From NCBI RefSeq assembly GCF_058153355.1, contig NZ_CM177019.1: a stretch of DNA of 64,000 nt; one strand, given 5' to 3'. The notes beneath the pieces are model-generated. The model saw only the letters and a list, made by a program, of their open reading frames with translations. It made no database searches and was not told the DNA's origin. How positions within the stretch are numbered: the first letter of the stretch is position 1; each line of letters opens with the position of its first letter. Below, one piece after another: positions 3,906 to 45,309 of this stretch. Both the position numbers and the translations under genes were made by a program.

Positions 3906-4829
3906 ATGGAAAAAAATAGTCTGTTTAGTCAGCGCATCCGTTTGCGCCACCTTCATACATTCGTAGCTGTTGCACAACAAGGAACTTTGGGGCGCGCAGC
4001 TGAAACCCTTAATTTGAGTCAACCTGCGCTCTCCAAGACATTGAATGAACTAGAGCAATTGACAGGTGCTCGCTTGTTTGAGCGTGGTCGTCAGGGGGCG
4101 CAACTTACCTTACCCGGCGAACAATTTTTAACACATGCCGTCAGAGTTCTTGACGCTATTAACACTGCCGGACAGTCGCTTCATCGTAAAGAAGGTCTTA
4201 ACAATGATGTCGTCAGGGTAGGTGCATTACCTACCGCGGCGCTGGGAATATTACCTTCGGTTATAGGTCAGTTTCATCAGCAACAAAAAGAGACGACCTT
4301 GCAAGTTGCGACAATGAGTAACCCTATGATTCTGGCGGGTTTGAAGACCGGCGAAATCGATATTGGCATTGGTCGGATGTCAGATCCTGAACTGATGACC
4401 GGGCTTAATTATGAACTGCTGTTTCTTGAATCGCTGAAGCTGGTTGTCCGCCCTAATCACCCGCTACTTCAGGAGAACGTAACGCTAAGCCGGGTGCTGG
4501 AATGGCCGGTTGTTGTATCACCAGAAGGCACTGCGCCACGCCAGCATTCAGATGCATTAGTGCAGAGCCAGGGCTGTAAAATTCCTTCGGGCTGTATCGA
4601 AACACTGTCTGCTTCGCTATCTCGTCAACTTACGGTTGAATACGACTACGTGTGGTTTGTTCCATCTGGCGCTGTAAAAGACGACCTGCGTCATGCCACG
4701 CTGGTGGCCCTGCCTGTTCCGGGGCATGGTGCAGGCGAACCGATCGGAATATTGACCCGCGTAGATGCGACGTTCTCTTCCGGTTGCCAATTGATGATTA
4801 ACGCTATTCGAAAATCAATGCCGTTCTGA
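3906..4829 (+). CDS. ydcI: LysR-family transcriptional regulator YdcI
   Basis: ORF opens at 3756 but conserved 307-aa product starts at MEKNSLFSQRIRLRHLHTF; N-terminal LysR-type HTH. Confidence 0.85.
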   Translation: MEKNSLFSQRIRLRHLHTFVAVAQQGTLGRAAETLNLSQPALSKTLNELEQLTGARLFERGRQGAQLTLPGEQFLTHAVRVLDAINTAGQSLHRKEGLNNDVVRVGALPTAALGILPSVIGQFHQQQKETTLQVATMSNPMILAGLKTGEIDIGIGRMSDPELMTGLNYELLFLESLKLVVRPNHPLLQENVTLSRVLEWPVVVSPEGTAPRQHSDALVQSQGCKIPSGCIETLSASLSRQLTVEYDYVWFVPSGAVKDDLRHATLVALPVPGHGAGEPIGILTRVDATFSSGCQLMINAIRKSMPF

Positions 4830-41326: not shown

Positions 41327-42460
41327 ATGAAAAGCAAAGTACTGGCACTTTTAATTCCTGCCCTGCTCGCCGCAGGTGCTGCACATGCAGCCGAAGTTTA
41401 TAATAAAGACGGCAACAAATTAGATCTGTATGGCAAAGTTGATGGCCTGCATTATTTTTCTGATAATTCAGCGAAAGATGGCGACCAGAGCTATGCGCGT
41501 CTGGGTTTTAAAGGCGAAACCCAAATTAACGATCAACTTACTGGCTACGGTCAATGGGAATACAATATTCAGGCAAACAACACTGAATCTTCAAAAAACC
41601 AGTCATGGACCCGTCTGGCATTTGCCGGACTGAAATTTGCAGATTACGGTTCTTTCGATTACGGACGTAATTATGGCGTAATGTACGACATCGAAGGCTG
41701 GACCGATATGCTGCCTGAATTTGGCGGTGACTCTTATACCAATGCAGACAACTTTATGACTGGTCGTGCCAATGGCGTCGCGACTTATCGTAACACTGAT
41801 TTCTTCGGTCTGGTAAATGGTCTGAACTTCGCGGTGCAGTATCAAGGTAACAACGAAGGAGCCAGTAATGGTCAGGAAGGCACCAACAACGGACGTGATG
41901 TTCGCCATGAAAACGGTGACGGCTGGGGTCTTTCCACAACATATGATTTAGGCATGGGCTTTAGCGCTGGTGCGGCATACACCTCTTCTGACCGCACCAA
42001 TGACCAGGTTAACCATACTGCGGCTGGTGGTGATAAAGCAGACGCGTGGACTGCTGGGCTAAAATACGATGCTAACAATATTTACCTGGCAACCATGTAT
42101 TCAGAAACGCGTAATATGACCCCGTTTGGCGACAGCGATTATGCTGTTGCAAACAAAACCCAGAACTTTGAAGTCACTGCACAGTACCAGTTTGATTTTG
42201 GTCTGCGTCCGGCAGTCTCTTTCCTGATGTCTAAAGGCCGTGACCTGCACGCTACCGGTGGTGCAGACAACCCGGCAGGTGTTGATGATAAAGATCTTGT
42301 AAAATACGCCGATGTTGGCGCGACTTACTATTTCAATAAAAATATGTCCACTTATGTTGACTATAAAATCAACCTGTTGGATGAAGATGACAGTTTCTAT
42401 GCTGCTAACGGCATCTCTACCGATGATATTGTCGCTTTAGGTCTGGTTTATCAGTTCTAA
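41327..42460 (+). CDS. ompN: outer membrane porin N
   Basis: 377-aa ORF with signal peptide and porin C-terminus (...VALGLVYQF); matches OmpN. Confidence 0.95.
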
Positions 42461-42468
42461 ATCCTCCT

Positions 42469-42493
42469 GCCCGCTGTTATGGCGGGCTTTTTC
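42469..42493 (+). terminator. rho-independent terminator of ompN
   Basis: GCCCGC-TGTTATG-GCGGGC hairpin followed by TTTTTC. Confidence 0.65.
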
Positions 42494-42519
42494 TGCTTAT
42501 TCTTCCTCCTTTGATCTAA

Positions 42520-43067: not shown

Positions 43068-43123
43068 GATTCATTTCGCAAATGTGCTGACATTTTCCCC
43101 TCTAATCATTACAATTTAAATTT

Positions 43124-43735
43124 ATGAATTATGCATTGATAATCGCTATTATAATATCGTTCCCCTGTGCATTATTATCAGTTTTTCTGGTATTAAAAGA
43201 CTGGGCGCTAATAGGAGATGCAATGAACCACGCAATGTTTCCTGGCATAGTTCTAGCCTGGATTATAGGTATGCCGCTGGGAATTGGTGCATTTATTGTA
43301 GGACTGTCTTGTGCAATTGCAACTGGCTATCTGAAAGATAATAGCATCATAAAGAAAGATACCATTATAGGTATCGTTTTTTCAGGAATTTTTGTCTTGA
43401 CTATCAACAGGCACAAGTCAGCGGATTACAGATATCATTATTACATTACGGTTTACTCTGCATGGTATCGCCTACCATTTTTGCCACATTAAAAGCAGTC
43501 GGAATTATTCTGTCTATATACTATTAATAGCTCCAGGGTCTATTGCTGTCCTCATCACGCATCGCTTTCATAAGACATTACTTATCGCCGTAACGATATC
43601 AATAACAATATCAGGCGTATGGTTATTATATTTTCTCGACAGAGCCCCAGCGCCGACAATCGTCCTCTTATTTGCTGTAGCATTTCTTTTCGCGCTTATA
43701 ATAATCAATTTTCGGAAACAATAATCTCAACAGTA
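43124..43735 (+). pseudogene. decayed ABC-3 family (Mn/Zn/Fe) transporter permease gene, frameshifted and internally truncated
   Basis: frame of 43124..43492 encodes an ABC-3 permease-like N-terminus (DAMNHAMFPGIVLAW, TIIGIVFSGIFVLTI); permease-like C-terminus (LLIAPGSIAVLITHRFHKTLLIAVTISITISGVWLLYFLDRAPAPTIVLLFAVAFLF) continues in another frame to stop at 43733..43735; AT-rich. Confidence 0.5.
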
Positions 43736-44991
43736 GAATAAAGAGGCAAATCAATCATTACATATATAAGATGGTGCTAATATTGCACCGCCTTTAAATT
43801 GAACTTTATCCTTTCACCCTTACACAATTTAAGGAATGCAGATGACTATTTTATCAGCACCCAGCCTTTTTCCTGGTAATCGAAAACTTGAAAATCATTA
43901 ACTCTAAGAAATTCTGCCAAATCGTTGAAATTACTTTAAATTAGACTCGAACAAATCAACCCCTGATGGGGCTTTTACTTATCCATTTAATCGGGTATAT
44001 ATCGACCTCCATCTGCCCGCCTCAGATTCGTACCTGGTGGAGGTCTTTTTTCGTTACCTCTTTCCCCCTTTAGTTCAGTATAAAATCATCAAACTAATGC
44101 TGTTCACACTATTTACCTCCAGCATTCTATATAAATAATAGAAATAAAAACCCCAATACATAGTGCATTGGCATGACCAAACATCAATGCCATTATACTC
44201 GCCTCTGTTAAATACTCGCTAGTTAATATGATAGGCACGCATGATATAACAATCCATATGCTAATACATAAATACACCAGTATTTTTCTCATAGTCAGTC
44301 CCTGTGATTAACAATCAAGGCATAGTTAAGCATATTTCACATTCAAACGTAAACATTATTAATAACATTATGTCAATCGAACTGACATCACGATTCAAGC
44401 CCTCTTCAGACTGAAGGCTAGAGCAGCGTAGAACATTTCAAAACAATACACTGAAAAAATACTTGAACAAAAAACTTAATTCTTTTTTATTGTGAACTTT
44501 AGTAATTTTGTCATGCAACTCTTTATTACATTTAGGCCTATCTTATTTCATGGCAACGCAAATACAGGACCATTTCTTGTGCTATGGATAAGTAATAAGC
44601 TAGTTACATCTTATTAAGAGAACCATTTTCACATATCAAAATATCATCACCACCCACAATGAATTAAGTATTTTTCTTATTCTTTAGATTAGATACGTAA
44701 TGAATCCCTAACTCCATTCGGGTGTCATGGCTCTTTCATTTGAAATACATTCATATCCAATGTAATATTTCTATGCGCAAATATAACTACCGACCATACT
44801 CATCATTTATTACAGAGAATTATTTTATTCACCGAAAAGTTTCACAAAATATCCCCTGATAGAAAACTAAAAAACACTGCATAATATCGCTATTCTGGCA
44901 CTTGCGAAAAATTATATTCTGCACCTGTTGTAGCGTTCTATTTCTCCGCCTGGCAACGAATGCACAATGTCCGCCACAGTTTCTGTTCTAA

Positions 44992-45309
44992 TTTCTTCCT
45001 GTGTTACCGCATCCTGTACGGGTAGCGCAACACCAGCATGCTAAGCAAGGCTTTCCCATCAGATTTCACTACGACTATTTGGGAGCGAGATGGAATGCAG
45101 CAGTAAAACGTGCTGGTATTCGCCGCCGTAATCCGTACCATACGCGACATACTTTTGCCTGCTGGCTGTTGACGGCAGGAGCGAACCCGGCATTTATAGC
45201 CAGCCAGATGGGGCATGAAACTGCGCAGATGGTGTATGAAATTTACGGTATGTGGATTGATGACATGAACGACGAACAGGTAGCTATGTTGAATGCGCGG
45301 TTATCGTAG
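44992..45309 (+). pseudogene. 3' fragment of a tyrosine-recombinase (Rac-type prophage integrase) gene
   Basis: open frame encodes only the integrase C-terminal catalytic region (RRNPYHTRHTFACWLLTAGANPAFIASQMGHETAQMVYEIYGMW) with no N-terminal domains; directly upstream of ttcA where K-12 carries intR. Confidence 0.7.

Follow-up and report, generated by a model that had tools for sequence, protein, structure and literature searches.

Does a small hydrophobic reading frame lying in a decayed stretch of the Escherichia coli chromosome encode a protein, and of which kind? The frame in question, here called ORF59, lies on the minus strand of the window (the whole stretch of DNA that was analysed, 64,000 nucleotides long), and the initial annotation had likened its product to small membrane-active peptides such as type I toxins or prophage-derived small proteins. 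Our reading, held with moderate confidence, is that ORF59 is a true protein-coding gene derived from a prophage, and a member of an undescribed family of 59-residue hydrophobic proteins that E. coli and Shigella carry in their lambdoid phages and prophages. The frame and its start signal are as follows:

44113-44292, minus strand: ORF59 (type A), 59 codons plus TAA, based on the sequence, homologues, selection and an AlphaFold2 model.
44299-44303, minus strand: weak Shine-Dalgarno-like AGGGA, followed by CTGACT (6 nt) and then the ORF59 ATG.

The 59-codon hydrophobic ORF first seen by hand translation was reproduced exactly from the window sequence, in coordinates (ATG at 44292-44290, TAA at 44115-44113) and in translation (MRKILVYLCISIWIVISCVPIILTSEYLTEASIMALMFGHANALCIGVFISIIYIECWR), and the AGGGA claimed six nt upstream of the ATG was also found, at 44303-44299. 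The predicted product has 59 amino acids and a GRAVY of 1.4. At the position aligned with AGGGA, the type B relatives described below carry AGGAGG or AGGGGG (DNA alignment). A consensus scan detected no sigma-70-like promoter directly 5' of the type A ORF59. The length of the frame carries no evidential weight and was dropped as coding evidence, because an ATG ORF of 59 codons or more occurs in 43% of Markov-1 simulations of the tract, with the same length and composition.

The window is a piece of E. coli chromosome with the gene order nifJ-ompN-uspF ... ttcA-dbpA. From uspF to ttcA there are, in this order, a frameshifted metal ABC permease pseudogene, an AT-rich tract, a DUF1627 fragment and a tyrosine integrase C-terminal fragment abutting ttcA, which we take, from what is established for K-12, to be a prophage scar at the Rac-type attachment site. 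The features of this interval that matter here are:

43123-43724, plus strand: metal ABC transporter permease pseudogene, frameshifted, between uspF and the prophage scar.
43958-43973, minus strand: terminator-like hairpin AGCCCCATCAGGGGTT with a T-rich tail, on the 3' side of the hok fragment (consensus scan only).
43988-44058, minus strand: fragment of a hokD/relF-type gene that starts at about codon 24 and is broken by an in-frame TGA (VTKKDLHQVRI*); 56 nt of it match hokD with 84% identity.
44068-44112, minus strand: 3' flank of ORF59, homologous to the phage spacer from the ORF to around the -35 region of the hok promoter.
44823-44971, minus strand: C-terminal fragment of a LygF/DUF977-type lambdoid replication-region gene, from its similarity to phage LygF.
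45001-45309, plus strand: open frame over the tyrosine integrase C-terminal fragment (PGAP pseudogene at about 45079-45309), adjoining ttcA at the outer edge of the scar.

The tract itself (43725-44950) has 34% G+C and its other ORFs all have 45 codons or fewer, in agreement with its earlier description as about 1.2 kb of AT-rich, otherwise ORF-free DNA; that ORF59 sits there alone does not hold, as it is flanked by the hokD-type and LygF fragments. Some variation was observed in the surroundings. The sampled alleles segregate at around 10% of the sites of the permease pseudogene, and their lengths differ there by single bases at 43165 and about 43255. In ompN (plus strand), it is the 3' half, approximately 41900-42500, that is hypervariable, with 24-47 segregating sites per 120 nt, compared to 1-5 per 120 nt in the rest of ompN and in uspF in the same genomes; the ompN of one RefSeq genome contains an internal stop. 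The variability suggests recombination or diversifying selection on the porin loops.

The LygF/DUF977 fragment sits 530 nt upstream of ORF59, and by tblastx this fragment, ORF59 and the hok fragment show the order and orientation found in the lambdoid early-right region. The LygF fragment shows the tract to be colinear with that region, and colinearity was found with phages PhiR42_1 and vB_EcoS-640R1. At the other side, the hokD-type fragment starts 55 nt downstream of ORF59 on the same strand. In a distant-mode phage search, 56 nt just 3' of ORF59 corresponded to phage hok (labelled MokW or HokD) with 84% identity, and positions 44057-43990 read in frame VTKKDLHQVRI*GGQMEVD where Hok has VTRKDLCEVRIRTGQTEVA; the fragment is therefore the C-terminal half of a hokD-type gene with an internal stop. 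When the phage DNA was aligned, the window was seen to jump, after approximately the -35 region of hok, to hok codon 24, with the junction at about 44058-44068, the placement of the hok promoter being a reading of the aligned phage sequence. According to this alignment, a deletion of around 240 nt has taken away sok, the first half of the hok coding sequence and, ahead of it, the promoter, leader and mok start. In the remaining spacer (44068-44112) polymorphism is zero among 35 alleles. The terminator-like hairpin could be the 3' end of a transcript carrying ORF59. As a whole, the tract is a collapsed copy of the phage nin region, with ORF59 as the only intact reading frame left.

This tract was found in 1049 of 5426 complete E. 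coli genomes with 97.7-99.8% identity, carriers including ST131, Nissle 1917, ATCC 25922, F11, NC101 and E2348/69. In ST131 isolate 46, an ISEcp1 (IS1380-family) transposase lies in the AT-rich tract around 400 nt upstream of ORF59, with a breakpoint at about 44697, and the insertion replaces the LygF, DUF1627 and integrase fragments. A palindrome, CTTCAG-T-CTGAAG, was also seen at 44404-44416 (minus strand), on the stop codon of the former upstream gene. In type B, TTTAG-A-CTAAA aligns to it around 120 nt 5' of the ATG, with both arms changed and the symmetry kept, and the palindrome could be a putative protein-binding site or hairpin.

Relatives of ORF59 were searched at several depths. A word-indexed search returned near-identical E. 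coli proteins only, and protein-derived patterns gave zero relatives among the GTDB species representatives. With phmmer against 1.84 billion representatives, full-length and ungapped relatives were recovered with 38-44% identity to the window protein (type A); this second group, type B, 41-44% identical to type A, was enlarged by a profile search, all its members being from E. coli or Shigella. Its sequence is MKNALQFLFVAFWLF[AV]SCMPIIFTARYMEK[IV]DVLIL[MI]FG[HY]INALFLGVFMAVMCIEYWR, and it is encoded in phages PhiR42_1 (from ECOR13), vB_EcoS-640R1 and vB_EcoS-813R8 and in 1568 of the 5426 E. coli genomes. The Qin prophage of K-12 does not have a gene of this family, and Qin was discarded as a source of experimental data for that reason. 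In IMG/VR, 159 relatives turned up and 80 loci were retained; among them was type C, with 76% protein identity to type B. In the DNA alignment, the three types have 59 codons each, with the ATG and the TAA aligned and no indel within the ORF, and the alignment of the upstream flanks requires several indels.

The frame is intact in the 80 kept IMG/VR loci, and the hok ATG lies 257-259 nt past the ORF stop in 71 of the 73 that are long enough to judge, the two exceptions being the type A locus itself and one locus with hok around 1.5 kb downstream. In intact phages the gene is part of the early-right (nin) region, where it has the orientation of O, LygF and Q and sits beside hok, after the replication genes and before Q. 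The genes 5' of the ORF vary among prophages and the ORF-hok unit is constant, so that the ORF and hok/sok travel together. We define the family by its position in the lambdoid early-right region and its invariant residues (W13, S17-C18-x-P20, G39, N42-A43-L44, G47 and E56-x-W58-R59-stop); the window copy has the 59 codons, the invariant residues and the position upstream of hok. Conservation of the reading frame in related genomes, on which the initial annotation had made its case depend, was thus found across types A, B and C, and its suggestion of a prophage-derived small protein is borne out by diverged 59-codon homologues in active lambdoid phages and many prophages, together with the colinearity of the tract with the nin region.

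Other arrangements were noticed around phage hok genes. In two type B loci the hok beside the ORF is broken at its start codon by an insertion element, and these loci have a second hokD further downstream, after relBE, so some prophages have two hok loci. Phage mEp460 carries at the equivalent position, just upstream of the hok promoter (minus strand, about 1626-1537), another unannotated hydrophobic ORF of around 29 codons (VLVLKCALAITAVMAIYCLAIVLMDRLSD) with GGAGG in front of it. Phage hok loci may recurrently have small membrane ORFs as upstream neighbours.

The substitutions between types were used to ask which frame is maintained. Types A and B have 59% nucleotide identity and 24 of 59 amino acids in common, and their differences are distributed 25/16/31 among the codon positions, with pN of 0.33 and pS of 0.71. 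For a permutation test, the observed A-B substitutions were shuffled among sites that start from an identical base. An open frame was retained in 2% of the trials, 24 or more identical amino acids were obtained in 2.5%, both together in around 0.1%, and a hydropathy correlation of at least 0.78, the observed value, in 0.025%. The comparison of C with B, in which dS is not saturated, gave differences of 8/4/16 by codon position, pS of 0.31, pN of 0.12 and an omega of 0.34 (Fisher p = 0.009), the ORF identity of 84% not being above that of the flanks. Among types, the substitutions spare the reading frame, the hydropathy profile and non-synonymous sites (omega about 0.2-0.34), and the whole pattern indicates that the ORF59 frame is the one that has been under selection.

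A more modest account accepts the family as real and takes the window copy for a dead relic, an ORF open by chance in a decaying scar, silent and with no consequence for the host. In favour of it, the neighbours are all pseudogenes or fragments (the permease gene, hok, LygF, DUF1627 and the integrase), the Shine-Dalgarno sequence is weaker than that of type B (AGGGA versus AGGAGG), the promoter-like site directly upstream is absent, and rare disrupted type A alleles exist (W58*, start loss and frameshifts). The clade is also young, as shown by the identity of its tracts, so that its frame would be expected to be intact with no selection at all. Polymorphism was followed in 35 type A alleles, from nine genomes (window included) and 26 metagenome contigs, retrieved with anchors outside the ORF. 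Against the relic, the frame is intact in all 35 and in more than 1000 contigs, ORF59 is the sole prophage piece that has kept its frame, and only 1.7% of its sites segregate among the 35 alleles, a density 4-6 times below that of both flanks (6.5-10%) and equal to that of uspF (1.6%), with 10% in the permease pseudogene.

The kind of changes found within types speaks against the main reading and, in type A, for the relic. The three type A polymorphisms are non-synonymous, with no synonymous one (V6M, S11N, A31V), and so are the five of type B (A16V, M28I, I31V, M37I, H40Y). Eight non-synonymous changes out of eight are compatible with neutrality (P about 0.17) and hard to square with an omega of 0.2 or lower, which argues against strong recent purifying selection; all eight are conservative, of the kind that membrane helices tolerate. 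Low diversity is not peculiar to the type A ORF: only 2.6% of the sites segregate in the integrase fragment, and 8% of the 180-nt windows across the degenerate zone have values as small as that of ORF59. Because diversity is patchy along the region and the integrase fragment is similarly poor in it, the low diversity is suggestive of ongoing constraint and goes no further, and a Poisson estimate by which low polymorphism proved constraint was softened on the same grounds. Within the integrase fragment, positions 45021-45260 have 5 segregating sites in 240 nt, nearly as invariant as ORF59, which might be due to ttcA upstream signals or to patchy recombination. On balance, we regard a dead relic as possible, if doubtful.

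According to a second alternative, ORF59 would be a chance ORF in AT-rich non-coding DNA that codes for nothing, its hydrophobic look coming from T-rich codons. The frequency of such ORFs in the simulated tracts goes along with this, as do the fact that PGAP never called ORF59 and its failure to match any family above noise in Pfam, PHROG, NCBIfam or PADLOC. Nevertheless, the identical frame, start and stop in three diverged types, the permutation and dN/dS tests favouring this frame, the canonical AGGAGG of type B and the intact frame in every kept viral locus make this explanation very improbable, and by such comparative data it is largely refuted.

We also find it very hard to see ORF59 as a type I toxin silenced by a cis-encoded antisense RNA, as the initial annotation had in mind. 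ORF59 is small and hydrophobic, with a basic N-terminus, and agrees with the usual size and hydrophobicity of these toxins (usually less than 60 amino acids, with a transmembrane helix); in addition, a bona fide type I system, hok/sok, adjoins it, the Shine-Dalgarno region is paired with upstream sequence in the minimum-free-energy fold, and a consensus scan detects promoter-like sites on the opposite strand of the ORF59 region, inside the ORF, at 44168-44196 and 44112-44139. However, two helices and 59 residues are atypical, and ORF59 gave no match above noise with the Hok/Gef profile (PF01848), only the adjacent fragment at 44058-43988 being hok-like. Rfam, even with permissive thresholds, showed no family at ORF59 and none reaching threshold. 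Its sub-threshold hits are most likely due to chance; the best of them, a weak match to STnc420, a Salmonella sRNA, lies outside ORF59 at 44445-44495 (plus strand; E = 0.036, with 26 bits where the gathering score is 70).

The in silico look for an antisense RNA and for promoters on both strands did not favour the toxin either. The antisense hexamers are not visibly conserved in type B as read from the DNA alignment, the consensus scans found no sigma-70-like promoter anywhere in the type B locus and no antisense terminator at ORF59, and the folding z-scores lie within the range of the shuffles (0.22 for type A sense, -0.82 for type A antisense and -0.64 for type B sense). With such ordinary folding energies in both strands and both types, a highly structured mRNA occluding the ribosome-binding site was not found. 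Furthermore, the orphan copy persists in more than 1000 genomes without a recognisable antitoxin. The type I toxin of this neighbourhood is the adjacent hok, which survives in the window as a fragment.

The least probable alternative is that the real gene is on the opposite strand. PhiR42_1, vB_EcoS-640R1 and vB_EcoS-813R8 annotate opposite the type B gene an 83-codon ORF (4407-4658, minus strand, of the extracted phage loci) as "hypothetical protein" or "hornerin", of which ORF59 would be the mirror image, and this frame is open in types B and C, with pS of 0.34 and pN of 0.115 between them. This signal is not independent, because the third codon positions are shared with ORF59, and the antisense ORF was rejected as a conserved frame since its ends vary (it has 83 codons in type B but 60 in type C, and type A has two stops in it), pN and pS are about equal between A and B (0.40 and 0.44), no Shine-Dalgarno is seen before its ATG on reading the sequence, and what it encodes is a polar, low-complexity sequence that mirrors a membrane protein. 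The annotation of this ORF is probably an error to which the mirror frame gave rise.

Returning to ORF59 as a genuine gene, we analyzed what its product could be. AlphaFold2, with an alignment of 18 type A and B sequences, predicts two helices (residues 2-24 and 30-58) with a short acidic loop between them, at a mean pLDDT of 79.5. Residues W13, S17, C18, P20, T24, G39, N42, A43, L44, G47, E56, W58 and R59 are invariant in this alignment, clustering as S17-C18-x-P20, as G39, N42-A43-L44 and G47 (a GxxxAxxxG small-residue face) and as E56-x-W58-R59 at the C-terminus. Fold searches against BFVD and PDB returned generic helical hairpins only, all with E > 1. We also applied a lipobox rule of the PROSITE PS51257 type, requiring K/R in the first 7 residues, an uncharged h-region, and [LIVMFWSTAG]2-[LIVMFYSTAGCQ]-[AGS]-C with the Cys at 15-35. 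The rule is passed at Cys18 by type A (IVIS|C), type B (LF[AV]S|C) and type C (LFAS|C), and by 8% (A) and 2.4% (B) of composition-preserving shuffles. Since the three types pass it, a cleaved and lipidated product is a live alternative to the hairpin, and we infer from these predictions that ORF59 is a two-pass inner-membrane protein or a small lipoprotein.

The product would insert in the inner membrane in one of these two forms. In the first, it would be an N-in/C-in helical hairpin made of MRK, a first transmembrane segment, the acidic loop TSEYLTEAS and a second transmembrane segment with the packing motif G39xxxA43xxxG47. In the second, helix 1 would be a lipoprotein signal peptide cut at S17|C18, leaving a lipidated peptide of 42 residues with one transmembrane helix.

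We compared ORF59 with known small membrane proteins. Like Hok/Gef proteins (PF01848), encoded by the hok/sok systems of plasmid R1 and of E. coli prophages (hokD/relF), it is a small hydrophobic membrane peptide of lambdoid prophages. Whereas Hok has one transmembrane segment and a periplasmic tail, two helices are predicted for ORF59; the two proteins are not similar in sequence, and ORF59 is without a mok-like coupling frame, a sok-like antisense RNA or a fold-back mRNA structure. With Ldr, Ibs, TisB, ShoB, DinQ and ZorO it shares the size class, the hydrophobicity and the basic N-terminus, but those peptides have 19-35 residues, a single helix and a mapped antisense or divergent sRNA, and ORF59 has none of these signals. 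The N-terminal K/R, the hydrophobic stretch, the lipobox at Cys18 and a precursor of about 60 residues are comparable to those of small envelope lipoproteins, such as the Rz1 o-spanin, the Cor/Llp exclusion lipoproteins, the colicin-release "lysis" lipoproteins and the entericidins. By contrast with these lipoproteins, the mature ORF59, its lipidation being predicted, would carry a full transmembrane helix and only around 14 periplasmic residues, its gene is outside the lysis cassette and the tail region, and no sequence similarity is found. As a phage-encoded helical hairpin of comparable size, it also resembles the superinfection-immunity protein Imm of T4 and class II holins such as S21. 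It differs from both in that its gene is found upstream of Q in the nin region rather than beside the endolysin, and in the lack of a charged C-terminal tail; as regards class II holins in particular, it has two helices, but its C-terminus is only ECWR and the gene is outside the lysis cassette. Peptide strings of ORF59 had no match in the literature searched or in the supplements of the EHEC Sakai small-gene study, and nothing on the gene was found in the literature on small proteins and hokD.

In phages, ORF59 would probably be transcribed by read-through from pR during lytic growth, which is the simplest inference from its orientation with the pR operon and the absence of a detected promoter of its own. 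The protein may act there on the envelope, for instance in exclusion or membrane modulation, possibly linked to hok. The copy in the chromosomal scar of B2 strains, with a weaker ribosome-binding site and no recognisable promoter, could be a domesticated remnant or a still-intact relic. A more ambitious version of this reading, which we consider unlikely, is that ORF59 and hok/sok form a functional two-gene membrane module in which ORF59, as a small lipoprotein or a hairpin protein, modulates Hok or excludes incoming phage, and that B2 E. coli domesticated only ORF59 after the loss of hok. Such domestication would explain the single intact, low-diversity frame in a scar common to around 1000 genomes.

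The initial annotation had described the ORF as unannotated, which is right for RefSeq/PGAP in every record inspected and wrong for GenBank, UniRef and JGI, where the protein appears as "hypothetical protein" or "uncharacterized membrane protein" in more than 1000 contigs. The type B gene is likewise without PGAP annotation. In about half of the complete E. coli genomes that were searched (1049 with type A and 1568 with type B out of 5426, two sets that may overlap), RefSeq annotation misses this conserved gene for a membrane protein of 59 residues, and phage records annotate the wrong strand at this locus. Although hok/sok is among the best-studied toxin-antitoxin systems, its constant neighbour is described in none of the protein-family libraries searched. 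If ORF59 is silent in the scar, it is an ordinary relic and the finding shrinks to an annotation note. If it is expressed, it would be a new small envelope protein for ST131, CFT073-like UPEC, Nissle 1917 and EPEC E2348/69. The family also provides a simple handle on the accessory genes that travel with hok in prophages.
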